Notes under the pieces: generated by a model
Databases searched by the model: none
Told to the model about the DNA's origin: nothing
The model's input: only the letters and a program-made list of their open reading frames with translations
NCBI GenBank assembly: GCA_016186955.1
Contig: JACPKP010000003.1
Location: forward strand, 66,290-130,289
Length of the DNA stretch: 64,000 bases
Source of the DNA: Candidatus Daviesbacteria bacterium
Lineage (GTDB): Bacteria; Patescibacteriota; Microgenomatia; Daviesbacterales; UBA10151
Direction: 5' to 3'
Position numbers and translations under genes: made by a program
Shown here: positions 2,849 to 54,657 of the stretch, one piece after another
How positions within the stretch are numbered: the stretch's first letter is position 1
How the letters are laid out: every line of letters begins with the position of its first letter

Positions 2849-3582
2849 AGTTTTTTTTGTGCAATAGCAATTATAGATAAACCAAAATTCAAGGGAACCG
2901 TTTTATCTAGGAAATCTAAACATGGAACAAGCTTATTAATAAGCCAAGTTTGGTGTTGAGGAAGACCCTTTCTTTTTAAAAGTTTACTGTTAACAAACCA
3001 ACCCAAGGCGCCTAGCTTATTAATATAAAATATTTTTTTTATTTTAAAGTTTGTTTTGACTAATTTATTTGATATCTCTTTTTTGGAGTATCTTCTAAAA
3101 TGGCCCACCCTTTTATCATAAGATCCATATAAAAAATTATGTGCAGGAGCAAGCAGTATGAGAATACCCTTATCCTTCAGCAATTTAGAAATATTGATTA
3201 ATACTTTCATATCATCTCGGGTATGTTCGACAACATTTACAGCAACGATAGTCTGAAATTTTTTGTTTATTTTACATGGTTTAGTTATATCCAAAAATAA
3301 AGGCTGTTTTGAAAACTGTTTAAGTTTTTTGATATATTTTTTATTAATCTCAGAAGGAGTAACATTGAAACCGGTAGATATTAATATCGAGGTAATAGTG
3401 CCAATACCGCTTCCGATTTCCAAAACGTCATTTTTTATAAAGTTTTTAAACTTAGAAACAAGCCAAAGGTTGTAAGCATTAAGCCCTGAAAGTGTTTCTA
3501 ACGCTTGTATCTGCAAATCCATAAATTGATATTTATTTTTTGCTAATATATCATTTCCATCATCAATGCAAAAGAGGTTCAA
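2845..3582 (-). CDS. Class I SAM-dependent methyltransferase
   Basis: Motif I VLEIGSGIGTIT followed by an acidic residue after strand 2. Length 245 aa. Confidence 0.7.
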   Translation of the reverse strand: MNLFCIDDGNDILAKNKYQFMDLQIQALETLSGLNAYNLWLVSKFKNFIKNDVLEIGSGIGTITSILISTGFNVTPSEINKKYIKKLKQFSKQPLFLDITKPCKINKKFQTIVAVNVVEHTRDDMKVLINISKLLKDKGILILLAPAHNFLYGSYDKRVGHFRRYSKKEISNKLVKTNFKIKKIFYINKLGALGWFVNSKLLKRKGLPQHQTWLINKLVPCLDFLDKTVPLNFGLSIIAIAQKKL

Positions 3583-5005
3583 GGGTTGGTATTGGTTTTT
3601 GGTTTTGATTTTATTTGGTTTTCAGACAATTTTTATTTTTAACTCTTTGGACCAGATACGTTATGAAGAATTAGCAGAATCTGTAAGGAACCCTTTTTGG
3701 TTTCAGAATAGGCTGATATACGATGGCACCTCCGGTAGTATCTTTTGGTATGGAATTTTAGCATCCGTTTACAATATTTTTGGGTTTAGTTTATTCACTG
3801 CCAAATTCGTCAGGTTATTTTTATATCTAATATCGCTGTTGTCGCTGGCAGCTTTATTAAAAAAATATTTTGGAGTAAAAAAAGCTGTAATCCCTCTTAT
3901 AACAATAGGGTTTTCACCGACTCTGCTGTATTTTAATACAATACAAACCATAGGAATTGACTTGGTATGGCTGCCGATATCCCTGTATCTGCTTAGTCGA
4001 ATAGATTTTAAGAAGGGTGCTTTTACACAAATTTTATTTTGGGTGATTTTAATGTTTTCCTGGCTTTCTTATCCTACTGTTATTTTTTATACCCCTGCGC
4101 TAGTTCTCATATATGGATATAAATTATTTAAAACAAAAGCAGCAATACTAAAAAATGTTTTGATAAGTACAGCAACATTTTTTATGCCTCTAATTTTAAC
4201 CTTTATTTACATCACAAACAGAGAATGGATGATATACGACCCGCACCTTAGAAACGGTTTGTTTAGGGGTGCAGGACTGTTGCAGTTTGACGGCGGGTTT
4301 TTCTTTAGAAATCTTAATATCTTGAGTATGAATTTATTTGACCGGGCTTGGGGTTATTATTTTGAGCTTTCTAATGTTGAATTTTCACATATTTTGCCGA
4401 TGTTTTCTATTGGTTTAATTTTTTACATAGCTGTTAAGGTTTTTTTCATCAGCCCAAAACTTCGCTTCTGGGTTTTTTTGGCATTTATAACACTTATTCT
4501 AAACATTGTTGTGATAAGTTTTTCAATAGATCCTAATCTTGGAATCAGACGGTACACCCCAGTTATCGCTTCAATTTATGTACTGTTTATAATCTGCTGG
4601 GTATATACCAGAGATCTTCAAAAAAACAACCAGTTCCGTCTTATCACAACCTTAATGCTGATTATTATACCTGCCCACCATATATTAAGCTTTCCTGTTA
4701 ACTTAGTTCATTTAAAAGATCCAAGTTATTTTCGGGAAATGGTTTGGTTTAACAGATCAGAGACTCCCCAGAAATCCCTTGATCTGGCAGTCCAGGAGGT
4801 GCAGCAACATGATTTAGATCTGATCTGTTTGGATCAAAAAAATCAGCCCTATCCTTGCAGATATAGCGAAATTTATGCTGCAGTGGCAGGTTCTTGTTTA
4901 TGGAACAGACTGCAATGCCATAAAATTTTAGGTTATGATTTCAAAACAAAAAATTTTATTCCCCTTTCCGTTGAACTCTGGAATACTTACTACTTCGGGC
5001 ATTAG
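3566..5005 (+). CDS. Polytopic membrane protein; paralog of 1403..2848
   Basis: 479 aa with the same conserved N-terminal motif and Cys-rich C-terminal block as 1403..2848. Confidence 0.55.
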   Translation: MQKRFKGWYWFLVLILFGFQTIFIFNSLDQIRYEELAESVRNPFWFQNRLIYDGTSGSIFWYGILASVYNIFGFSLFTAKFVRLFLYLISLLSLAALLKKYFGVKKAVIPLITIGFSPTLLYFNTIQTIGIDLVWLPISLYLLSRIDFKKGAFTQILFWVILMFSWLSYPTVIFYTPALVLIYGYKLFKTKAAILKNVLISTATFFMPLILTFIYITNREWMIYDPHLRNGLFRGAGLLQFDGGFFFRNLNILSMNLFDRAWGYYFELSNVEFSHILPMFSIGLIFYIAVKVFFISPKLRFWVFLAFITLILNIVVISFSIDPNLGIRRYTPVIASIYVLFIICWVYTRDLQKNNQFRLITTLMLIIIPAHHILSFPVNLVHLKDPSYFREMVWFNRSETPQKSLDLAVQEVQQHDLDLICLDQKNQPYPCRYSEIYAAVAGSCLWNRLQCHKILGYDFKTKNFIPLSVELWNTYYFGH

Positions 5006-5186: not shown

Positions 5187-6965
5187 ATGATGTTAAAAAA
5201 ATTAAAATCACAAAAAGTTCAACTTCTGATAATTATTATTTTAACCTTTCTTGCTTATTCAAATATCTTCACCAACCACCTTGTTATAGATGACCAGTTT
5301 TTTATCAAAGAATGGCCCCAGATGCAAAACTTTGATGTTGGTGTATTGCTTGGTGGTTCACTTCCTGCAAAGGCCAGCGGGGTCTACCGGCCGATCAGAA
5401 GCTTACTTTATGCATTTTATTACCAGATAGGAGGGGAGAATACATTCATTTATCATCTACACTCAATCCTCGTCCACCTGGCAGCAACATTGTTAGTCTA
5501 TTTTATAACCAGGCAGCTCATTCTCACCCCGGGGGTGAAAAACTTGAGATTACACCCCCGGGGTGGTCACTGGTTGGCTTTTTTAACTGCCCTTCTTTTC
5601 GGCCTGCACCCAATCCATACAGAAGAAATTACATATATCTCAGCCAGCATGGATGCAACAGGGATTGTGTTTTTGTTGGCCTCATTTTACCTGTATATGC
5701 GCTCGCAATTCACCCCGGGGGTGAAAAAAATGCAGCTACACCCCCGGGGTGTAGTCTTGGGAGGTTCAATAGCTTTCGCATTACTGGCATTTTTCACAAA
5801 CGAATTAACGCTGATACTGCCAGTACTCATCATTTTATATGAGATCTATTTTGGCAAAATTGCAGCCTCATCAATAAGATTGCCACGTCCTCCGATGGAC
5901 ATCGGAGTCCTCGCAATGACAATGTTTTACTTTGGTTTAACTGCTTTCTATATGTTTGTGAGGTTTTTTGTGGTCCAAGTTCCATTCAGCAGGGGGGATT
6001 ATCTGGCCCAAAGTTTTTACCATACTATGTTGGTGATGCCGGGAATCGTTTTGAAGTATATTTATCTTCTTGTTGTTCCTTTAAAACTTTCTTTTTACCA
6101 CACTCTTGCTCCTGGCTTTGAAAATTATATGGTGGCTTACACTCGTTTTGATTCAATTTTAAAAAAGTCATTTTTTGATGCTGATGTTTTATTGTCCCTG
6201 GTAGGATTGATTGGACTGATAGGACTTATTTTCTGGTTTTTCCAAAAAAACCGGTTGGTTAGTTTTTGTCTGGCCTGGTTTTTTATCACAATGTTACCAG
6301 TCTCATACATTATACCAGTTGGCCCGGCAATTTCTGAAAGATATCTATATTTGGCTTCCTTTGGGTTTTGTTTATTGGCAGGCTATCTGATGATAAAAAT
6401 TTCTAATTTCAAATTTCTAATTTCAAATTTCAAACTCCTTTTTTTAACTTTTAACTTTTTACTTTTAACTTTTTACTTTTACCAGACTTATCAACGCAAC
6501 TGGGATTGGCAGGATATACCCTCTCTTTACAAAAGCACATTAAGGGTTTATCAGAAGAGCCTAATTGCCAGCTATCATCTGGCTGTTTATTACTCAAATA
6601 ACCAACAATTTGCATTGGCAGTTCCTGCTTACCAGAAAGTATTAAGCATAGAGCCGGATTTTTATGAAGCCCATGCTAATTTAGGGAGCGCCTATTTTAA
6701 TTTAGGCCTGAAAGATGAGGCAGGGATCCAATACCAAAGGGCATTAAGCATTAATCCAAATTTTTTAGATGCCTATTTAGGTTTAGCATCTGTTTACAAA
6801 CAACAAGGAAAATCTAAAACTGCGGTGGAAATGTTAAAAAAAGGTTTAGATATTGATCCTGGAAAATACAAAACTTTAGGAGTGTTAAAAAGCCCGGAGG
6901 AGATCAATATTAAACTGGCTGGTATCCGTAAAATGCTAAAGGAGTTGCAAACTCCAACCCATTGA
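5187..6965 (+). CDS. TMTC-like (DUF1736) GT-C glycosyltransferase with C-terminal TPR; carries in-frame palindromic insertions
   Basis: Motifs GVYRPIRSLxYA, GLHPIHTEE, PVGPAISERYLYLASFGF and RNWDWQD, followed by TPR repeats (AHANLGSAYFNLG..., AYLGLASVYKQQG). Paralog of 7004..9091. Confidence 0.7.
   Translation: MMLKKLKSQKVQLLIIIILTFLAYSNIFTNHLVIDDQFFIKEWPQMQNFDVGVLLGGSLPAKASGVYRPIRSLLYAFYYQIGGENTFIYHLHSILVHLAATLLVYFITRQLILTPGVKNLRLHPRGGHWLAFLTALLFGLHPIHTEEITYISASMDATGIVFLLASFYLYMRSQFTPGVKKMQLHPRGVVLGGSIAFALLAFFTNELTLILPVLIILYEIYFGKIAASSIRLPRPPMDIGVLAMTMFYFGLTAFYMFVRFFVVQVPFSRGDYLAQSFYHTMLVMPGIVLKYIYLLVVPLKLSFYHTLAPGFENYMVAYTRFDSILKKSFFDADVLLSLVGLIGLIGLIFWFFQKNRLVSFCLAWFFITMLPVSYIIPVGPAISERYLYLASFGFCLLAGYLMIKISNFKFLISNFKLLFLTFNFLLLTFYFYQTYQRNWDWQDIPSLYKSTLRVYQKSLIASYHLAVYYSNNQQFALAVPAYQKVLSIEPDFYEAHANLGSAYFNLGLKDEAGIQYQRALSINPNFLDAYLGLASVYKQQGKSKTAVEMLKKGLDIDPGKYKTLGVLKSPEEINIKLAGIRKMLKELQTPTH
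5525..5565. repeat. 41-bp palindromic element, copy 1 (13-bp stem CACCCCGGGGGTG / CACCCCCGGGGTG, 15-nt loop), in-frame inside the CDS
   Basis: Perfect inverted repeat read directly from the sequence. It encodes an extra LTPGVKNLRLHPRG segment that the paralog 7004..9091 lacks. Confidence 0.75.
5711..5751. repeat. 41-bp palindromic element, copy 2 (same 13-bp stems, different 15-nt loop), in-frame inside the CDS
   Basis: Perfect inverted repeat. It encodes FTPGVKKMQLHPRG, which is absent from the paralog. Confidence 0.75.
6396..6482. repeat. Two adjacent 14-nt tandem duplications (TTTCTAATTTCAAA x2 and ACTTTTAACTTTTT x2, each with a partial third copy) inside the CDS
   Basis: Read directly. 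Translates to KISNFKFLISNFKLLFLTFNFLLLTFYFY. The words resemble the AT-rich intergenic motifs at 44462-44560. Confidence 0.6.
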
Positions 6966-7003: not shown

Positions 7004-9091
7004 ATGGAGCAAGTTTTCAAATATCTGGATAAAAATAAGTATTTGGGGCTTGTTATTGTTTTGGTGGCTACTTTTTTAGTTTATGCAAACTCACTCCAAA
7101 ATGGGTTTGTAATTGAAGATGATATTTATATCAAAAATTGGTCTCTCACCCAAAGCCTTGCCAACATCCCAAAAATGTTTGGCGGGGATACTGCCCCAAC
7201 CGGGAATTATGGCATCTACAGGCCATTGCGGGGGGTATTTTATGCAATCAGTTATGCAATGTGGGGCGCTTCTAACCCTTTAATCTATCATACTCAGGCA
7301 TTATTGGTGCATCTTATCATCACCGGGCTAGTATTTTTGATAGCCCTGCAGGTTTTTAAAAAACCTTACCTGGCTACCCTGGCAGGTCTTTTGTTCGGCC
7401 TTCATCCTATTCATACAGAACCGGTCGATTACCTGACCGCTAATTTTGATGCAGTCTCCTACATCTTTTTTTTCGGTTCGCTTTACTTTTACTTAAAGAG
7501 TCTAAAACTGCCAAAATTTGATATCAACTATTACCTGTCTTTAGCCCTGGCAACATTGGGGTTTTTCTATTTCGAAATGACTTTAACACTGCCGTTTCTG
7601 GTACTTGCCTATGATTTTTGTTTCAGAAGAAAGATGTTTAAAAAATGGGAGGATACTTTAAAAATATACGGGCCTTATTTTTTCGCAGCAGGAGTTTTTC
7701 TGTTTATAAGAATTGTTTTACTCAATATGACTGTCAGGGGGGAATATTTAGGGGGAAGTTTTTATCTGACCATGCTCACCATGGTTAAAGTGATAGTAAA
7801 ATACCTATATCTTTTGATCTTTCCCCTTAACCTCTCAATTAACCCCCAGATTGCAGACGGCATTTATTCCTGGGTTCACCCTCTTGCTAGGATGGACAAA
7901 ATTCTTTCTCAGTCAATTTTTAATCCGGATATCTTGGCAAGATTGGGGTTGCTAGGCGGACTTTTTTATGCTGCGTATTTTTTTTACAAAAAACTGCCTA
8001 TGGTTCCGTTTTGTATCTTCTGGTTTTTTATCTCAATTTTGCCAATCTCCTATATCATCCCGCAGGGGCCAATTATGCAGGAAAGATATATCTATACCGC
8101 CTCGTTTGGGTTTGTCATGCTTTTGGTATATCTTTTTGATTATCTGCAACACCATGATTTCAGTAAAAACAAAAAAAGATCAAAAGAGGTCCGTGAAATC
8201 CTGCAGCCTGCACTGGTTACGTTACTTATTATAACCCTATCTTTTTATGCCTTCAGGACATTTACCAGAAACAGGGATTGGAAAGACTCTTTTGCGGTTT
8301 GGTCAACTTTAGCAAAAGAGTCTCCGCAGGATGTGATAGCAAACTTTTACACAGCCAACCTTTATGCCCAAAATAATATGGATGATTTGGCAACGCAGTA
8401 TTATAACAAGGCGCTGTCAGTGGAATATAAACTTCATGAAGCGCATTTTGCTTTAGGAAAAATAGCCTTCAAGCAGGGCAATTTTGACTCTGCGGCCACT
8501 AAATTTTATCAAACCCTTGCTATAAACCCAAACTTTACTCCGGCTCTTGAAGGTTTAGACCTGATAAACAAGGAAGCAACCGCAGAAGGAAAACTGAACA
8601 AGGAAAATATCTGGAAAGAATGCACCCTGCAGCAACAGTCTGAAATTACACTTATTTTTTCCTGTCCAACTACTTGGAAGATGATCAAAACTAAGCAAGG
8701 TTTAACCCTGAAAGATACGAAGGGCGAATTCCATATAGAGATGAGTTTGGACAGCGCCCAAGGCGAACCCAATTTGGATGAATATCTTGCCAAGCAAACA
8801 GATACATATGGTAATTTAGTCAACCAGGGCCTTGCCAATTTCCTGAATTTTGACGCAGCTGCAGTCAAAGTATGGGAGGAACCAGCAGAAGAGGCGACCC
8901 AGCCCAAAAAAACCCAGAAGAAAGATGGGGGAGAACAAACCCAGCCTGAACAAAATTTGCAAAAATTACAGTTCTTCCTTTTTAAAGGAAGTAATGTTAT
9001 TAAAATACTTGTTTACCCCTCAAACTCTCCTTTAATGCCTAAATTTGAAAGGTTAGTCAGCTCTATCAAAGAAGTTGAGAAAGCTCCCTAG
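7004..9091 (+). CDS. TMTC-like (DUF1736) GT-C glycosyltransferase with TPR repeats and an acidic/lysine-rich C-terminal extension
   Basis: Motifs GIYRPLRGVFYA, GLHPIHTEP, PQGPIMQERYIYTASFGF and RNRDWKD. TPR: YTANLYAQNN..., AHFALGKIAFKQGNFDSA. Confidence 0.7.
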   Translation: MEQVFKYLDKNKYLGLVIVLVATFLVYANSLQNGFVIEDDIYIKNWSLTQSLANIPKMFGGDTAPTGNYGIYRPLRGVFYAISYAMWGASNPLIYHTQALLVHLIITGLVFLIALQVFKKPYLATLAGLLFGLHPIHTEPVDYLTANFDAVSYIFFFGSLYFYLKSLKLPKFDINYYLSLALATLGFFYFEMTLTLPFLVLAYDFCFRRKMFKKWEDTLKIYGPYFFAAGVFLFIRIVLLNMTVRGEYLGGSFYLTMLTMVKVIVKYLYLLIFPLNLSINPQIADGIYSWVHPLARMDKILSQSIFNPDILARLGLLGGLFYAAYFFYKKLPMVPFCIFWFFISILPISYIIPQGPIMQERYIYTASFGFVMLLVYLFDYLQHHDFSKNKKRSKEVREILQPALVTLLIITLSFYAFRTFTRNRDWKDSFAVWSTLAKESPQDVIANFYTANLYAQNNMDDLATQYYNKALSVEYKLHEAHFALGKIAFKQGNFDSAATKFYQTLAINPNFTPALEGLDLINKEATAEGKLNKENIWKECTLQQQSEITLIFSCPTTWKMIKTKQGLTLKDTKGEFHIEMSLDSAQGEPNLDEYLAKQTDTYGNLVNQGLANFLNFDAAAVKVWEEPAEEATQPKKTQKKDGGEQTQPEQNLQKLQFFLFKGSNVIKILVYPSNSPLMPKFERLVSSIKEVEKAP

Positions 9092-9094
9092 AAG

Positions 9095-9215
9095 CTATTT
9101 CAAAACGTCATCGCGAGCGACCGGGGGGAGCATAGCGATCTTACTTCAATCAGATTGCTACGTCACTCGCTGCGCTCGTTTCTCGCAATGACATCGGGTT
9201 TTGAAATGGGCTCTA
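9095..9215. terminator. Long imperfect inverted repeat between convergent genes; putative bidirectional terminator
   Basis: TTTCAAAACGTCATCGCGAG ... CTCGCAATGACATCGGGTTTTGAAA, with a second internal dyad CGAGCG ... CGCTCG. It lies between the 3' ends of 7004..9091 (+) and 9213..10655 (-). Confidence 0.4.
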
Positions 9216-10655
9216 GAATTTAATCTGGTATACTCCGGTAAAATCCCCTTCTGCTCTGGAAAATATCCTTAATGGTTTTATGTATGGTTTGATCTCTGTA
9301 GGAATTAACTGGCTGTGGGATATAAAATAAACTGGGGATAATTTGGCCAAAAACCTAATCTGATTTAAATCAATATGGTCTTTGGGCAGGGCCAAAATTT
9401 TTAATCCAAGACTATTTCGGTAGTAGCTTAGCGCATAAGATGAGATATTGCTCATTCCGTCGAGGGTAGGGACCAGTAAAAAAACTTCCCCTTTAGAGGG
9501 CCTTATTGAATCAAAAAAAGCCAATGCTTCTTTAACACTATATCCTGAAGGCCAATCAAATACGTAGGCCCGTTCTATCTGAAGCAGGGAACCTTTGGGG
9601 ATTAAGGAAAAAAAACCAAGGGGGTGAAAAGTTATAAGCAAAGCTTCAAACAACAATGGTAGGAAGATTAACATCCTAATCCATAAGGCATTTTTTAAAC
9701 GTGAGATTAAGTTATCCAAACCAACCGCAAGGATGAGCAAAAGCGGGGCTGCAGCGAATAAATCATAACGGAAATTTAACATCTTAGAAGTCAGTATCAG
9801 CAAAAGAGAAGGCATCAAAAACCATAGGAATAAAACCCTAGTCTCTTTTTGTGCTGTATCTTTTTTTAGAAAAAAAAGCCCTGCAAAAACAGCAGGTGTG
9901 AAATAAAGCAGATATGAGATAGTAAAGAAAAGTAAATTCCTAAACCAGGTTTGGATGGGGAAACCGGCAACTTCGTTTAATGGAAGTGCAAACCCCTGCC
10001 CCTCAAGTAAAATCAAGTTGAAATCCGGCCTTAAGATTAAAGGTAGGATAAAGCTCAAGGAAACAATTAAGGGGATTATTAAGGTTCTAACCCTAAAAAC
10101 GATTAACGCAACAAAAGCTGTGATACCAAGATATAAACCGGTAGTTTTTATCCAAAGAGTCAAACCAAGGATTATCCCCAGATTTAAAGCGTCAACCCAC
10201 CGGAATTTTTTTCTTAGTTTAAAGACCAATGCTAAAACCATAATGTTTAAATCAAACAAAATACCATCCATTAAGGCTGTTGCCTGTGAAAAAATCAAAA
10301 AAGGAGAAAAAGCGTATAATATTAAACCAATGGTTGCTGCATTTGCATTTCTCAGCTGCCTTATGAGTTTATATAAAATAAAAAAAGGTGGGATACTTAT
10401 TATCAGGTTTACCAATCTGGCGCCGGTGACCGGGTTATTAAAAATTTGTGCTCCGAACCCGTAAACCCAAAAAAGCAAAGGTTGTTTATGCCAAACTTCA
10501 ACCGGCATAAACAACCCGTCTTTTAACTTCAGCGAAAGGATTCCCCACCAGGCATAATTTGACTCATCAATAAATGGTGGGAAAGTAAAGATAAAATAGA
10601 TACGCAAAGCCAAAAATAAAATAAAAACCCAGATAATTTTAGTTGATGTAGCCAC
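9213..10655 (-). CDS. ArnT/PMT-like GT-C membrane glycosyltransferase (GT39/GT83-like)
   Basis: N-terminal TM helix followed by a first-loop DE motif (FPPFIDESNYAWWG). Polytopic, 480 aa. Confidence 0.5.
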   Translation of the reverse strand: MATSTKIIWVFILFLALRIYFIFTFPPFIDESNYAWWGILSLKLKDGLFMPVEVWHKQPLLFWVYGFGAQIFNNPVTGARLVNLIISIPPFFILYKLIRQLRNANAATIGLILYAFSPFLIFSQATALMDGILFDLNIMVLALVFKLRKKFRWVDALNLGIILGLTLWIKTTGLYLGITAFVALIVFRVRTLIIPLIVSLSFILPLILRPDFNLILLEGQGFALPLNEVAGFPIQTWFRNLLFFTISYLLYFTPAVFAGLFFLKKDTAQKETRVLFLWFLMPSLLLILTSKMLNFRYDLFAAAPLLLILAVGLDNLISRLKNALWIRMLIFLPLLFEALLITFHPLGFFSLIPKGSLLQIERAYVFDWPSGYSVKEALAFFDSIRPSKGEVFLLVPTLDGMSNISSYALSYYRNSLGLKILALPKDHIDLNQIRFLAKLSPVYFISHSQLIPTEIKPYIKPLRIFSRAEGDFTGVYQIKF

Positions 10656-10656
10656 A

Positions 10657-12381
10657 TTATTTAGTTTTCTTCCGGTATAGAAAGATGAAGGATAGAGAGA
10701 CTATGAAAAAATTAATGCTGAGTATGTTGCTGACTGACCTTAATGTGGTGTTTTCTAAGTTTAAAATTACTTCATGTTTGCCCGGAGGGAGTTGGATATC
10801 CATAAACCCGTAAATATTGTCGTAGTTGGGTTGTGCTTCTTTACTGTCTACAAATACCTTCCAACCCGGATAATAATGGGTGAAAAACCTTGCCACTGAT
10901 GGTTTTTGCATCTCCATATTGTATTTTTTCAAGGATGCAGTAAGTTTGTAGTCAATTATTTTGGCCTCACCCAGCAGAATTTTTACCTCTTCTTTAGGCC
11001 GGTCTGATTCTGCAGGTAAGACATCTGTCCAGCGGGGCATGTATCCCGGCTCAGGGTCAAAATTTTTCAGGTTCTCAGAAGGGTGTAAAATTTTATAGCC
11101 AAAATCAACCTCATTTGAATTACCATAAGCTGCAGGTTTTAAATAACCGCCATAGGCATAGGTTGCAGCTACCATTAAACAAACAAAAACGATATACCTG
11201 GAAGTGTCGTTTTTAAAGGCTATAAGAATGCTGCCTGCGATAAACGATGAAGTAAATGTCGCCACTGCCAGAAACCTCCAGGAATACTGGATGAAAGGGA
11301 TATATGGTAGAGTTTCCCAGATAGGTTGGGAGATAGGCAACATAATATAAACAGAGGTAAAAAGGGTTGCTAAAAAAATCAACAATAGCCAGTATTCCCT
11401 AAGATTGAAATTTTCCAGGTTGACAAAGTTTGAGATAAATGCCAGTTTTTTTCCGGCCCAAAATTTTGCACAGATAATAGCGGCAAGTATAAAAACAGCC
11501 AGCCAATGGACTATTCCCAACTGGAAAGAGATCTTATCTGTGCAGCCGGTTTGTGAAGTGCCATAATTCCAAGACGGGGTAAAAAGCTGCTGCAGGCAGA
11601 CAAAATGGTGGTGGAAATCATAGTACCCAGAGTGCATGTAAACAATCTGGACATAATCCTGTTCAAAATAAGCCGGGATCAGAAAGAAAGATACCAACCC
11701 AAACCCTACAAACAGTGAGAATATGACTGGTAAAATTTGTCTGAAGGATTTATACAACAAGTATAGGTATGTAATATAAGCCAAAATTAAAGGGGAGAAC
11801 ATGATAATTGTCGGCGGATGGGAAATGGTTACCAGCGCTACAAAAAATGAGGCAAGGGTCAAATAAAGGCCCTTTGAGCTGTCAAAATAGGCTTTAATGC
11901 CCCAGAAAATACCAGGGACAAATGCCAGGGCAGTAAATTCCGGCAGGGCGCTCCTTACAAAAATATCCAGTATATGGTAAGGCGCAAGAAAATACAGGAA
12001 AGAGGAAAGGATGCCGGGCAGTGTGCCGAAATGCCTTTTTGCAAACAGGAACATCAACAGGGCTGAAATAAACCATAAAAAAACAGCAGAAACATTGAGT
12101 GAGGGTATATAGTCCAACCCTAAAGACCTGGGGATTTGAAATAAATAGTAGATCCCGGGCTGGTAAAAATTAAAAAGCGGTTGGTTAAAACCCGGCACAA
12201 ACCAGTCAATCCAGCGTACCGGGAATTGTCCTGCCCTCAAAGCCTCCTCGAATTTCCTTAGGTAAATGGAATGCAGCTGGCTGTCATGGCCCAAAAACAT
12301 CCCTTCTTTCAAAAAAGGCGCCAAAATCTGGGTAAAAAGCAGCAATGAAAAAATTATTATAATCCTGTACCAGAATTTCAT
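10657..12381 (-). CDS. Large polytopic membrane protein, YfhO-like or related to the 18583/25650/28547 family; probable GT-C-type
   Basis: 574 aa, at least 10 TM helices. N-terminal motif GHDSQLHSIY...GQFPVRWIDW, C-terminal soluble region and a final TM helix. Confidence 0.4.
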   Translation of the reverse strand: MKFWYRIIIIFSLLLFTQILAPFLKEGMFLGHDSQLHSIYLRKFEEALRAGQFPVRWIDWFVPGFNQPLFNFYQPGIYYLFQIPRSLGLDYIPSLNVSAVFLWFISALLMFLFAKRHFGTLPGILSSFLYFLAPYHILDIFVRSALPEFTALAFVPGIFWGIKAYFDSSKGLYLTLASFFVALVTISHPPTIIMFSPLILAYITYLYLLYKSFRQILPVIFSLFVGFGLVSFFLIPAYFEQDYVQIVYMHSGYYDFHHHFVCLQQLFTPSWNYGTSQTGCTDKISFQLGIVHWLAVFILAAIICAKFWAGKKLAFISNFVNLENFNLREYWLLLIFLATLFTSVYIMLPISQPIWETLPYIPFIQYSWRFLAVATFTSSFIAGSILIAFKNDTSRYIVFVCLMVAATYAYGGYLKPAAYGNSNEVDFGYKILHPSENLKNFDPEPGYMPRWTDVLPAESDRPKEEVKILLGEAKIIDYKLTASLKKYNMEMQKPSVARFFTHYYPGWKVFVDSKEAQPNYDNIYGFMDIQLPPGKHEVILNLENTTLRSVSNILSINFFIVSLSFIFLYRKKTK

Positions 12382-43435: not shown

Positions 43436-44461
43436 CTAAATCAGTTTATTTTTCCAGGTGGTGGGAGTTGATCCGGTGGTCAGTTCAAGTTTATCAAGAT
43501 ATTGAAACTTTTGTGGGCCCACACTTTTGGCCCATTCCACCATTTTTGCCACACCCTCCTTCAGGGGTGTTTGGTTTTTAAAACCTAAAAGTTTTTTGGC
43601 TTTTGTATCGGTTGAATATGCCATTTTGACTTCCTGGGGTCGGTCTGGAACAAAAATAGGTTTTAGGTGTTTTGGGATATCGTTTAAATTTGTTACAAAA
43701 TGGGATAGTATTTCATTTGCCAGTTCATTGATGGTGTATTCTTTGGATGGGCCGACATTAATTATCTCCCCGGCGGTTTTTGATAAAAAACCAGCATTGG
43801 CTATATAAGGGGTGACATCATCAATAAAGCTGAAAGCCCTTTTTTGCTGCCCATCACCATAAATATAAAAATTTTTACCTTGCATCAGGCAGTTTATAAA
43901 AATTGCCACTACATTTCTGTAGGGATCAGCCAGGTTTTGCTTTGGGCCAAAGACATTATGGGGCCTAATGATAGTGTATTCAAAGCCATAGACTTGGGAT
44001 AAAACTTTGGTTGCATCTTCCATAGCAGCTTTTGATATCCCGTATATATCTACAGGTTTTTTGGGTATGTTTTCTGAGAAGGGAGGTTTTTGGTCACCAT
44101 AAACACTCATGGAAGAGGTCATCACCACCCTTTTGGTTTTAGCTTTAACTGCACCCACTAAAATGTTAAGCGAGGCATTCAAATTACGCTCCGTTGCCCT
44201 GACCGGAGTGAATTGGCTTCTGCCTTCTGTTGCATCAGCAGCCAGATGGTAGATAAGTTGAGGTTTGATTTTGACAATCAAAGCAACTGTTTTGGGGGTA
44301 TTTCTAAGATCCAGTTTGGTAAATATACTCTTGGGGTTTACATTGCGCATGTAGCCGCCCGAAAGATCGTCCACCCCATAAACTTGATGTCCTATCCTGA
44401 TGAGATGATCAACTAAGTGCGAACCCATAAATCCAGCAGAGCCTGTGATAAATATACGCAT
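43436..44461 (-). CDS. NAD-dependent epimerase/dehydratase (UDP-sugar 4-epimerase or dehydratase-like extended SDR)
   Basis: IFITGSAGFMGSHL. Catalytic SSMSVYGD ... YGISKAAME (YxxxK). Confidence 0.65.
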   Translation of the reverse strand: MRIFITGSAGFMGSHLVDHLIRIGHQVYGVDDLSGGYMRNVNPKSIFTKLDLRNTPKTVALIVKIKPQLIYHLAADATEGRSQFTPVRATERNLNASLNILVGAVKAKTKRVVMTSSMSVYGDQKPPFSENIPKKPVDIYGISKAAMEDATKVLSQVYGFEYTIIRPHNVFGPKQNLADPYRNVVAIFINCLMQGKNFYIYGDGQQKRAFSFIDDVTPYIANAGFLSKTAGEIINVGPSKEYTINELANEILSHFVTNLNDIPKHLKPIFVPDRPQEVKMAYSTDTKAKKLLGFKNQTPLKEGVAKMVEWAKSVGPQKFQYLDKLELTTGSTPTTWKNKLI

Positions 44462-44496
44462 AATTCAAAATGCAAAATTCAAAAGGTAAAAGTACA

Positions 44497-44531
44497 ATTC
44501 AAAAGTAAAAAGCTTTCAAACTTTTGAATTT
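44497..44531 (-). terminator. Hairpin (11-bp stem AATTCAAAAGT/ACTTTTGAATT) followed by a T-run on the minus strand; putative intrinsic terminator of the methyltransferase gene 44531..45775
   Basis: Perfect inverted repeat in the 69-nt gap. The minus-strand downstream sequence is T-rich. Confidence 0.45.
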
Positions 44532-45775
44532 TAACTTGAAATTTTAACTTTTGATTTTTGACCTTTGACTTTTTCAGGGTATAGTTTCGCCATTTGCTCC
44601 CTTGAGAATAGCATAAAGATGCCGTTTTTGCTTTTGTAAGTTGTTTTGCAGATGGGACATGAAAGAGTTTTGGTGGATTTATGGTAATTTAAGCCTGGTT
44701 TCTGTTTACAATTGGGACAAGCTAAAAGTTCAAATAATTTCTGTTCAGAAAGTCGCTCGCCACCTTCAAAAAAACCGCGAGTCCTTCCACGCGACTCGCT
44801 TGGAGTTTGTCTCGCGCCGTAAAAGTTCTCGGATGTGATGTTATGTGGTGCGCTCGACTGCACTACATTTTTTTGAATTGGTGGCTTCGCTTCTTTCTCT
44901 GATTTTTTGCATAAAGCCTCTATTCCTCCGCCTAAAATCTGCAAAAGGATGTTTTTATATAATGGGGGATTGAGCCAGCCCCGTACCGGATGGTACTGGG
45001 GCCAACCTTTTTTTGGTGTTTTGATTTGCACACTAATTGGGCCATAAGGGAAAGCCTTTAATGTGGCTTGAACTGCATCAAATACATTTAGGGTTTTTTC
45101 CCAGGTTTTTAAAGAAAAAGCTTCCTCTAAGATATTATTTTCAATCTCACTTTTGCCTATTTTGGAAATGAAATGCAAGACAAGCAAGCTCCTGAGGATT
45201 TTTTCAAACCAGCGCAAGTTCCTGTCCCTTTGCCATAAATTCAAGTTGATCATTTGGGCAACTGGCTCTTCATTAAAATAAAAATAACCTCCCGGCGCCA
45301 ACACCCTATATATCTCTTCCAAAACCGGTTTTGGGTCAGGAAAATGATGGAGTGTTTCAACAGTGAATATAAACGGTAGGGAGTTTGTTTTAAATGGCAA
45401 ATTATAAACATCACAGCAAACCCGAAACGGCATTTTTTTAAAATGCAGCTTGTCTTTATAGTGGTTAGCAAGTAGAAGCGTGTCATATGAGATGTCTGTG
45501 GCAAATCCCTGGGTTTTATATTGATCTTCCAAAAACATTGCCCCTTGCCCAATTCCTGAGCCAATTTCTAAATATGGCTCCAAAGTCATTTCATGTGAAA
45601 TTAAAGATTTAAAATATCTTTTGTAATCTTTAACCCTGCCGCGGATTATAGATAAATTTTGTTTATAAGATGGTTCACCAGGATACATAACTTCCTGCCC
45701 TGCAAATTGTTTAGCCAGCTTACGCCTGAAGTTTACTTCTCCCTGTTGGTTTCTCAGGTTTTGCAGGTTTGACAT
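44531..45775 (-). CDS. SAM-dependent methyltransferase with C-terminal Trm112-like zinc ribbon
   Basis: EIGSGIGQGAMFL motif I. C-terminal CPNCK...CPICK...NGIFMLF. Confidence 0.6.
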   Translation of the reverse strand: MSNLQNLRNQQGEVNFRRKLAKQFAGQEVMYPGEPSYKQNLSIIRGRVKDYKRYFKSLISHEMTLEPYLEIGSGIGQGAMFLEDQYKTQGFATDISYDTLLLANHYKDKLHFKKMPFRVCCDVYNLPFKTNSLPFIFTVETLHHFPDPKPVLEEIYRVLAPGGYFYFNEEPVAQMINLNLWQRDRNLRWFEKILRSLLVLHFISKIGKSEIENNILEEAFSLKTWEKTLNVFDAVQATLKAFPYGPISVQIKTPKKGWPQYHPVRGWLNPPLYKNILLQILGGGIEALCKKSEKEAKPPIQKNVVQSSAPHNITSENFYGARQTPSESRGRTRGFFEGGERLSEQKLFELLACPNCKQKPGLNYHKSTKTLSCPICKTTYKSKNGIFMLFSREQMAKLYPEKVKGQKSKVKISS

Positions 45776-53958: not shown

Positions 53959-54031
53959 GGGCCGTTAGCTCATTTGGTAGAGCGTCTGGCTGGCAGTCAG
54001 AAGGTGACCGGTTCAAGCCCGGTACGGTCCA
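53959..54031 (+). tRNA. tRNA-Ala (anticodon GGC)
   Basis: Manual cloverleaf: acceptor GGGCCGT/ACGGTCC with G3:U70, D-arm GCTC-ATTTGGTA-GAGC, anticodon stem TCTGG/TCAGA with loop CTGGCAG, T-arm ACCGG-TTCAAGC-CCGGT, discriminator A. CCA is not encoded. Confidence 0.8.
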
Positions 54032-54586: not shown

Positions 54587-54657
54587 GGGCTTGTAGGCAA
54601 GTGGTATACCGGTACATTCGCATTGTACAGTCCCGGGTTCGATTCCCGGCAAGTCCA
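54587..54657 (+). tRNA. tRNA-Ala (anticodon CGC), with a somewhat irregular D-arm
   Basis: Acceptor GGGCTTG/CAAGTCC with G3:U70. Anticodon stem GTACA/TGTAC with loop TTCGCAT. T-arm CCGGG-TTCGATT-CCCGG. Discriminator A. The D-stem has one mismatch. Confidence 0.6.

Follow-up and report, generated by a model that had tools for sequence, protein, structure and literature searches.

Probable REPIN-type palindromic doublets within genes of Candidatus Daviesbacteria and other uncultivated bacteria, and their association with a RAYT-like transposase

A 64,000-nt stretch of a Candidatus Daviesbacteria genome (GenBank assembly GCA_016186955.1, contig JACPKP010000003.1, positions 66,290 to 130,289; hereafter the window) holds a gene for a TMTC-like membrane protein into which two copies of a 41-bp hairpin-forming element are set in frame. 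The locus raises the question of what these elements are, what brought them into a coding sequence and how the gene accommodated them. What moves translated intragenic palindromes has been unclear since the Rickettsia palindromic elements (RPEs), and the systems built on repetitive extragenic palindromic (REP) sequences, i.e., REPs, their hairpin-forming doublets (REPINs) and the REP-associated tyrosine transposases (RAYTs), are classically counted as extragenic, and most of those known come from Proteobacteria. An earlier note on the window, made from its letters and open reading frames (ORFs), had likened the two copies to RPEs.

We consider it likely that the window elements are REPIN-type doublets, i.e., members of a non-autonomous family most likely moved by a RAYT-like Y1 transposase, and that the two copies are survivors tolerated in protein loops. 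This reading is built on the anatomy of the element, its distribution in other genomes, the variety of reading frames in which it is found and a transposase gene that units of the family repeatedly bracket. Loci and proteins outside the window are given by our own numbers (L and P, respectively).

The 13-nt unit, its family and the bracketed transposase

Both copies share the architecture CACCCCGGGGGTG-N15-CACCCCCGGGGTG, in which the arms are exact mutual reverse complements (Table 1). The earlier note had located the two copies correctly, with the same stems around different 15-nt loops and both in the frame of the gene, although its wording, a perfect palindrome, fits the arms only and overstates the element as a whole. 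Each 13-mer alone is an odd palindrome, CACCCC-S-GGGGTG, on which the earlier note had not remarked; this 13-nt sequence is the basic unit, and two of them in inverted orientation make up the 41-bp element, a doublet (the family unit is also written CACCYCSGRGGTG, and tgtgCACCCCGGGGGTGtaca is a unit-bearing sequence). The pattern had 0 matches in 100 dinucleotide-preserving shuffles of the window, and with up to two mismatches allowed the four arms are the sole occurrences of the 13-mer in the 64 kb. There are six differences between the copies, all of them within the 15-nt spacer (p = 0.0011 under uniform mutation). Folded as RNA, each copy gives a 13-bp hairpin of -28.3 kcal/mol (z about -6), with about -28 kcal/mol for either strand, and Rfam at gathering thresholds had no match at the elements. 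The only matches of the window at that level were two tRNA genes on the plus strand (53959-54031 and 54587-54657).

As the earlier note had proposed, other genomes were searched for the arm-spacer-arm pattern, and the element was found elsewhere. When one genome per species was scanned for arm-N5-35-arm, 30 loci were returned, and a metagenome scan in which either central base was allowed returned at least 80, making 110 loci by DNA pattern alone among the matches listed; counts over these loci and their doublets are to be read within that scope. No match (0) was obtained from viral contigs, and with it no sign of phage carriage. Units occur as singletons and in both inverted doublet arrangements, with at least 65 C-first against at least 10 G-first doublets in the metagenome sample and a doublet length of 33-57 bp. 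Copy number ranges from two doublets in the window, with a further two in the same genome deduced from peptides, to at least seven doublets in Omnitrophota nzgw300 and eight units within 7.4 kb of a Microgenomates locus (L026).

The 13-nt core is identical in the Candidate Phyla Radiation (CPR), in Omnitrophota and in other bacteria from groundwater and sediment, while flanks and spacers are lineage-specific. The palindrome is usually extended by 3-10 bp of lineage-specific palindromic flank, e.g., TGTG[13]TAC in a Microgenomates metagenome-assembled genome (MAG), CCTCT[13]AGAGG in an Omnitrophota MAG and CTTCG[13]CGAAG in another MAG, where [13] stands for the unit. The end of the arm is overlapped by G-TAC, G-TAA or G-TAG in some lineages, and in window copy 2 the sequence is GGGGTG-TAG. 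One class of doublets, 49 nt long, has the form [13C]-AAGTC followed by 18 variable nt and [13G], so that its 23-nt spacer is fixed in length and poorly conserved in sequence (L044, L065, L070, L073, L076, L077, L079, L081, L108 and L113); it is mostly intragenic, read as TPGVKS..TPGV or HPRGE..HPGG, and four copies lie on one 137-kb metagenomic contig.

The link to a putative mobilising enzyme comes from locus L026, where an ORF at 5470-6138 encodes a protein of about 222 aa with a Y1_Tnp domain (Pfam, E 1e-10) and is preceded by a doublet 27 nt upstream and followed by a single unit 8 nt downstream. Among NCBIfam models the protein fits the REP-associated tyrosine transposase (REP_Tyr_transpos) best, at 55.9 bits vs 20.4 for IS200, and the HUH motif (PNHFHLL) and catalytic tyrosine motif (SRYIHLNP) are invariant across the transposase family. 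The best solved structure for the family profile was 4ER8, the E. coli TnpA-REP bound to REP (E 9e-4), closely followed by ISDra2 TnpA (2XM3); a single-sequence PDB search returned nothing meaningful, and 4ER8 was reached with the family profile alone. Database relatives of the protein number more than 5,000, and CPR lineages account for many of them.

Of the 110 loci, 12 contain a transposase homologue, and in most of these the gene is directly bracketed by units (as in L026, L036, L016, L010, L042, L057 and L092). The arrangement also holds for relatives retrieved by protein similarity. An 81%-identical orthologue, in the same synteny beside dinB, has exact 13-mer doublets on both sides, and a 65%-identical paralogue in the MAG of that orthologue is bracketed by doublets of CACCTC-S-GAGGTG, the variant that site 1 of L031 also has. 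More distant relatives are bracketed by CACCT-CTA-AGGTG or AACCT-GGG-AGGTT, and RAYT paralogues and orthologues are flanked by the matching variant cores CACCTCSGAGGTG, CACCTCTAAGGTG and AACCTGGGAGGTT (L037, L038 and L033). In these sequences variant cores track variant transposases, and the bracketed gene is the REPtron arrangement that defines REP/RAYT systems. In assembly GCA_054012835.1 (L036 and L037) there are two RAYT paralogues, 65% identical, each with a core of its own (CACCCCSGGGGTG or CACCTCSGAGGTG), and a tRNA-gene-like sequence lies on the opposite strand just downstream of the L037 units.

A side observation concerns the 3' flank of window copy 2 (5752..5768, plus strand), which reads TAGTCTTGGGAGGTT and whose GGGGTG-TAG junction creates a GTAG. 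Within it, CTTGGGAGGTT agrees at 10 of 11 bases with the REP core CCTGGGAGGTT that brackets the Daviesbacteria RAYT P0208 (L033, gene 10001-10669), and the site-2 flanks in L014 and L031 resemble it (CCTGGGAGCC and TCTGGGAGCTT, respectively). The flank may be the remnant of a second REP type inserted alongside, or the likeness may be due to chance, and we give it little weight.

Insertions within genes

The host protein is 100% identical to P0001, an NCBI 'Candidatus Daviesbacteria' protein, and Pfam recognises TPR families in it. The label TMTC-like, used in the earlier note, is fair, as JGI calls its homologues protein O-mannosyl-transferase. Compared with the adjacent paralogue, the insert adds exactly 13 aa at site 1 (TPGVKNLRLHPRG being the in-frame product of copy 1), as the note had estimated for both sites, and about 8-10 aa at site 2, where the product of copy 2 is TPGVKKMQLHPRG. 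In an AlphaFold model of the host protein with a mean confidence score (pLDDT) of 88.4, copy 1 forms the loop of residues 113-126 (pLDDT about 66-69) and copy 2 that of residues 173-184 (about 67-71), with adjoining helices at 96 or above; both sites come after transmembrane helices of the model. The expectation that the inserts would map to loops thus held, both being low-confidence inter-helix loops of a confident model.

Table 1. Positions of the elements, their host gene and its paralogue in the 64-kb window
Feature	Position	Strand	Description
Doublet copy 1 (site 1)	5525..5565	+	CACCCCGGGGGTG AAAAACTTGAGATTA CACCCCCGGGGTG
Arms of copy 1	5525-5537 and 5553-5565		central G and central C, respectively
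Spacer of copy 1	5538-5552		AAAAACTTGAGATTA
Doublet copy 2 (site 2)	5711..5751	+	CACCCCGGGGGTG AAAAAAATGCAGCTA CACCCCCGGGGTG
Arms of copy 2	5711-5723 and 5739-5751		
Spacer of copy 2	5724-5738		AAAAAAATGCAGCTA, family consensus spacer
Host gene	5187..6965	+	592 aa, multi-pass membrane domain (PMT_2/TMTC-like) and C-terminal TPR repeats
Adjacent paralogue	7004..9091	+	695 aa, 35% identical, without both inserts; internal 'empty site' reference

Both inserts are absent from most of 21 aligned homologues, as would be expected of lineage-specific insertions. The insert peptide is found in two paralogues of the same genome outside the window, P0003 and P0048, which are known from peptides alone, and in four genes of a related MAG (GCA_964522265.1; loci L014, L031 and L032). 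In one of these genes (L031, paralogue P0007) the site-1 loop reads CACCTCGGAGGTG-AAAAAAATGCAGTTA-CACCTCCGAGGTG, with the spacer of window copy 2, and the element is shifted three codons downstream and read in frame 0 to give HLGGEKNAVTPPRW, exactly the frame-0 translation of the element. In another Daviesbacteria genome (L020) a further copy, with the spacer AAGAAATGCGATTA, falls within the B5 domain of PheT. Identity between copies is 73-95%, with host-gene flanks that are often at random level: between the window and L032 at site 2 the element agrees at 35/41 positions and the flanks at 13/45 and 12/45, and between window copy 2 and the L014 copy the corresponding figures are 39/41, 27/45 and 29/45. 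Because of the frame-0 copy, the PheT copy and an element identity far above that of the flanks, the copies are younger than their host genes, and at the level of sequence the elements behave as mobile DNA and not as an ancestral peptide. The in-frame mobile hairpin that the earlier note had proposed is also seen between genes, in further genes and in different frames, and conservation of the peptide without palindromic DNA was not what the homologues displayed.

Recombination has probably added to this spread. At site 1 the flanks of the window gene and of P0020 (L032) agree at 36/45 and 37/45 positions in proteins that are 43% identical overall, P0048, the counterpart of P0020 in the window genome, is without the site-1 element, and the site-1 copy of L031 has a downstream flank that resembles site-2 flanks. 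Since flanks about 80% alike stand against 43% protein identity, the sequences suggest that the site-1 element also travelled between paralogues together with its flanks. A palindromic element of another kind may have entered the same loop, given that L014 (663-764, in the gene for P0014), and by peptide also P0048, has a different, AT-rich insert there (..SIKYHVLRKDPLIHNTYYI..) with the inverted repeats ATGTATTA/TAATACAT and GTATTAAG/CTTAATAC. The MAG that contains L014, L031 and L032 (CAZFVS01...) is titled 'uncultured Gammaproteobacteria', a label that is probably wrong: the G+C content of the MAG is about 35%, and its paralogues closely resemble the Daviesbacteria window genes, flank identity reaching 80%.

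Elsewhere, many of the copies occupy housekeeping genes, and the Pfam-verified hosts include AtpA, PheT, UvrB, RecG (twice), DinB (three times), SecD, BioB and a MiaB-like protein, as well as an IscS-like aminotransferase, a prepilin peptidase, ThrRS, a ClpB-like protein, PurL, CarB, Fmt and a P-type ATPase. Intragenic copies use all three reading frames. Among the matches listed, 39-53% of doublets (n=92) lie within long open frames vs 60-73% of random positions in the same loci; the doublets are depleted in genes, but far less so than classical extragenic repeats, and the predominantly extragenic location by which REP/REPIN-RAYT systems are recognised is not seen here. The insert in AtpA, of about 16 aa, lies in a variable loop after the P-loop helix, and an Omnitrophota homologue of the window gene has its own version of the doublet in the loop equivalent to window site 1. 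The G+C-rich core reads as Pro/Gly-rich turns (TPGV, HPRG, HPGG, PPG) and is stop-free, the latter a property that says little by itself since 28% of random window 13-mers are likewise stop-free in six frames.

In dinB, orthologues of two related genomes, in L026 (7136-7173) and L036 (11627-11664), carry doublets at the same codon position and of the same 38-nt length that differ in sequence, one of the pair being [13G]TACGAATTCGTA[13C] and the other [13C]CACAGACCTGTG[13G]. The differences are mirrored, so that each version is still a near-perfect long palindrome, and could reflect replacement in situ or concerted change.

At least five membrane glycosyltransferase-like genes are clustered at this locus: the host gene, its adjacent paralogue and the genes at 8-1393, 3566-5005 and 9213-10655 (minus strand). 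The cluster comprises three TMTC-like TPR paralogues, one of them cut by the window start, a minus-strand PMT_2 protein and a 479-aa multi-pass protein without a Pfam match, and palindromic inserts are present in one of the five. Another inverted repeat of the window (44465-44561) is AT-rich, with 42-nt arms that are 76% complementary and repeated CAAAAT/TCAAAAG motifs; it is placed where two minus-strand ORFs, 43436..44461 and 44531..45775, adjoin, its right arm overlapping the 3' end of the second, and is unrelated to the GC-rich elements.

Mechanism and rival explanations

In the mechanism that we propose, two inverted copies of the 13-nt REP-like odd palindrome around a 15-nt spacer make up a REPIN-type doublet, and a RAYT-like tyrosine transposase of the Y1 (HUH) class would move it, most likely in the form of single-stranded DNA hairpins. 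The enzyme is encoded once or twice per genome in Microgenomates/CPR relatives, bracketed by the same 13-nt units, and insertion leaves no target-site duplication. In gene-dense genomes many insertions would land in genes, and the survivors would be those in which the frame is kept, no stop codon is introduced and the site is a tolerant surface or inter-helix loop, where the insert would presumably be neutral. Survival would be aided by the G+C-rich core because it is stop-free and gives Pro/Gly-rich turns in every frame. The window would then hold two survivors in two loops of the TMTC-like membrane protein, presumably translated as 13-aa extensions, as the preserved frame suggests. With neither a RAYT gene nor intergenic copies in the window they may be relics, and are probably surviving, stranded insertions.

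Two signatures bear on the mode of insertion. Over 130 distinct doublets among the matches listed, target-site duplications of at least 3 bp numbered 2 against 2.0 expected, with none of at least 4 bp, and the palindrome was extended into the flank at 3 bp in 36 cases against 2 expected. Both therefore argue against a miniature transposable element with inverted repeats (MITE) of the DDE type, and fit hairpin-guided single-strand transposition by a Y1 enzyme. A MITE, in which the 13-mers would be terminal inverted repeats and the Y1 association incidental, would share the arm-spacer-arm architecture, the shortness and the several copies per genome; it would not lead one to expect 13-mers standing alone, no DDE transposase turned up beside the copies examined, and the repeated, direct bracketing of the Y1 gene makes this explanation very improbable. 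DNA uptake sequences, hairpins of diversity-generating retroelements (DGRs), integron attC sites, dif sites, protelomerase sites and translational bypassing were dropped because of the variety of frames, the organisation in singletons and doublets and the transposase association.

The stems themselves have been kept intact. Across eight homologous copies all 104 of the 104 cells of the 13-bp stem are paired; both members have changed in three of the pairs and one pair has become G.U, against a varying loop, and the covariation score was reached by 0 of 500 shuffles. This complementarity is no artefact of the search, as four of the eight copies were found via protein homology and not via the DNA pattern. 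Mirrored changes of this kind could reflect selection on the element (intact hairpins being copied), variant master copies or template-switch correction. They could also be claimed for selection at the level of the host, with mobility secondary, e.g., for ribosome pausing behind a transmembrane helix or transcript stabilisation by an mRNA structure, or for a DNA structure or protein-binding site. Perfectly paired stems with a single sense-strand G.U and a varying loop, arms identical between the window copies despite six spacer differences (p = 0.001), very stable hairpins (-28 kcal/mol) and the position of both window sites after transmembrane helices would all suit such a role. Units are also found, however, between genes and, in all three frames, at unrelated positions of soluble proteins, the homologues of each host gene mostly do without them, and stem conservation is also to be expected from element-level selection or template-switch correction, which leaves host selection improbable. 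A selected ancestral peptide repeat, TPGVK..LHPRG, of which the DNA palindromy would be a by-product, is scarcely credible: its recurrence at the same two loops in several paralogues is what it would predict, but P0007 reads the DNA in another frame as a different peptide, there are intergenic copies and copies in unrelated proteins, the arms do not vary at synonymous positions where the flanks are saturated, and most family members are without the insert. The frame-0 copy and the intergenic copies already contradict it.

A rival of greater standing, which we nevertheless find doubtful, is that homologous recombination or gene conversion between relatives or paralogues brought the window copies in together with their flanks and that the family is an immobile relic in this genome. 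The site-1 flanks, alike between the window gene and P0020 beyond what their proteins would suggest, the lack of the site-1 element in P0048 and the site-2-like downstream flank in L031 speak for it, as do the restriction of all four known copies of the genome to one paralogue family and a window without a RAYT gene or intergenic units. Yet recombination accounts for spread and not for origin, site-2 flanks of different paralogues are at random level while the elements are 85% alike, the L031 site-1 copy lies at another position in another frame, and the element family is also present in PheT, which is unrelated to the host gene.

Several observations weigh against the REPIN-type reading that we prefer. 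The 64-kb window has no RAYT homologue by tblastn with RAYT proteins and no further unit, the variant cores AACCTSSSAGGTT and CACCTNNNAGGTG being at chance level or absent, and the four known copies in the genome belong, as said, to a single paralogue family. The score of the L026 protein falls under the curated NCBIfam cutoff of 80, the match to 4ER8 is weak (E about 1e-3), and the association with RAYT genes is correlative. A conserved unpaired GTAG or CGTC tetranucleotide at one unit end defines the REP super-families (Di Nocera 2013, PMC3733652), and neither occurs as a universal tag beside the 83 oriented units compared. The mirrored stem changes could have come about when quasi-palindromes were corrected by template switching, and not through selection. 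Some matches to the generic pattern are terminator-like and possibly chance hairpins (e.g., L005/L008 and L015, followed by T-runs), and several MAG taxon labels look unreliable, that of the Daviesbacteria-like CAZFVS and possibly other 'binchicken' labels.

A bolder extension of the REPIN-type reading, which we offer tentatively and regard as rather unlikely, is a REPIN lineage adapted to open reading frames, in which a core identical across phyla has been shaped to be stop-free and to give Pro/Gly turns in six frames and persists with its RAYT in the loops of essential genes. If true, it would be a systematic source of loop insertions in core proteins of streamlined genomes with almost no intergenic space, and no RPE-like intragenic element before it would have had its mobilising enzyme identified.

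Relation to known systems

The elements form what we regard as a widespread, previously undescribed family of REP/REPIN-type mobile palindromes. A full-text search for either 13-mer found no paper within the literature searched, and within the same literature no paper treating both RAYT/REPIN systems and CPR/Patescibacteria was found. Since an RPE-like coloniser of essential genes, inserted in frame, is here physically linked, in CPR bacteria, to a RAYT-like transposase, the question of mobilisation is directly testable with protein and oligonucleotides. There is also a consequence for annotation, in that Pro/Gly-rich loop inserts of CPR proteins (TPGV...HPRG, e.g., in AtpA, PheT, UvrB, RecG and DinB) would be scars of selfish DNA and not lineage-specific functional motifs, for which the 13-mer is a handy marker.

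In single-strand transposition of the IS200/IS605 and IS608/ISDra2 type, a Y1 HUH enzyme recognises DNA hairpins. The present elements, like these insertion sequences (IS) and the palindrome-associated elements derived from IS200/IS605, combine a Y1 HUH enzyme with DNA hairpins and leave no target-site duplication; unlike them, they have no distinct left and right IS ends and no tnpB, and their units are symmetric and far shorter than IS ends.

RPEs, of which the families RPE-1 to RPE-8 were reportedly described by Ogata et al. in 2000, are sequence families specific to Rickettsia and mostly 100-150 bp long, and to our knowledge no dedicated transposase is known for them. The likeness drawn in the earlier note holds for behaviour: the present elements are palindromic, lie in frame in genes including essential ones, presumably add translated surface loops and are lineage-specific when orthologues are compared. 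The closest family, however, is REP/REPIN with its RAYT-type transposase and not the Rickettsia families. Unlike RPEs, the elements are 33-57 bp doublets of a 13-mer, have no CGTC tag and are associated with a Y1 transposase. RPE-4/6 have themselves been tied to a CGTC-tagged REP super-family without a known transposase (PMC3733652). The elements of Daviesbacteria are not members of an RPE family, a separation that follows from the descriptions of RPEs and not from sequence alignment.

REP/RAYT systems have been described in E. coli, Pseudomonas and Stenotrophomonas, reportedly also in Nunvar 2010. Their features include short palindromic units of about 20-40 nt, inverted doublets, a bracketed Y1 transposase and compensatory stem changes (Bertels & Rainey 2011, PMC3116915; PMC3337134; PMC3733652), and intragenic, translated REP singletons and dimers are known, notably in uvrA/uvrB and other replication and repair genes (PMC3733652). 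The present family differs from these systems in its hosts, which are CPR/Patescibacteria and other uncultivated lineages, in a core of only 13 nt that is an odd palindrome, identical across distant lineages and without a universal GTAG/CGTC tag, in a transposase of about 222 aa that scores under the curated RAYT cutoff, and in that about 40-50% of the sampled doublets are intragenic where classical REPs are overwhelmingly extragenic. What it has in common with them is a short G+C-rich palindrome found singly or in inverted doublets that can fold into a long hairpin, a Y1 HUH gene bracketed by units in conserved synteny, variant units that match variant transposases, compensatory stem changes, the lack of a target-site duplication, and occasional intragenic copies, here presumably translated, that extend to DNA-repair genes.

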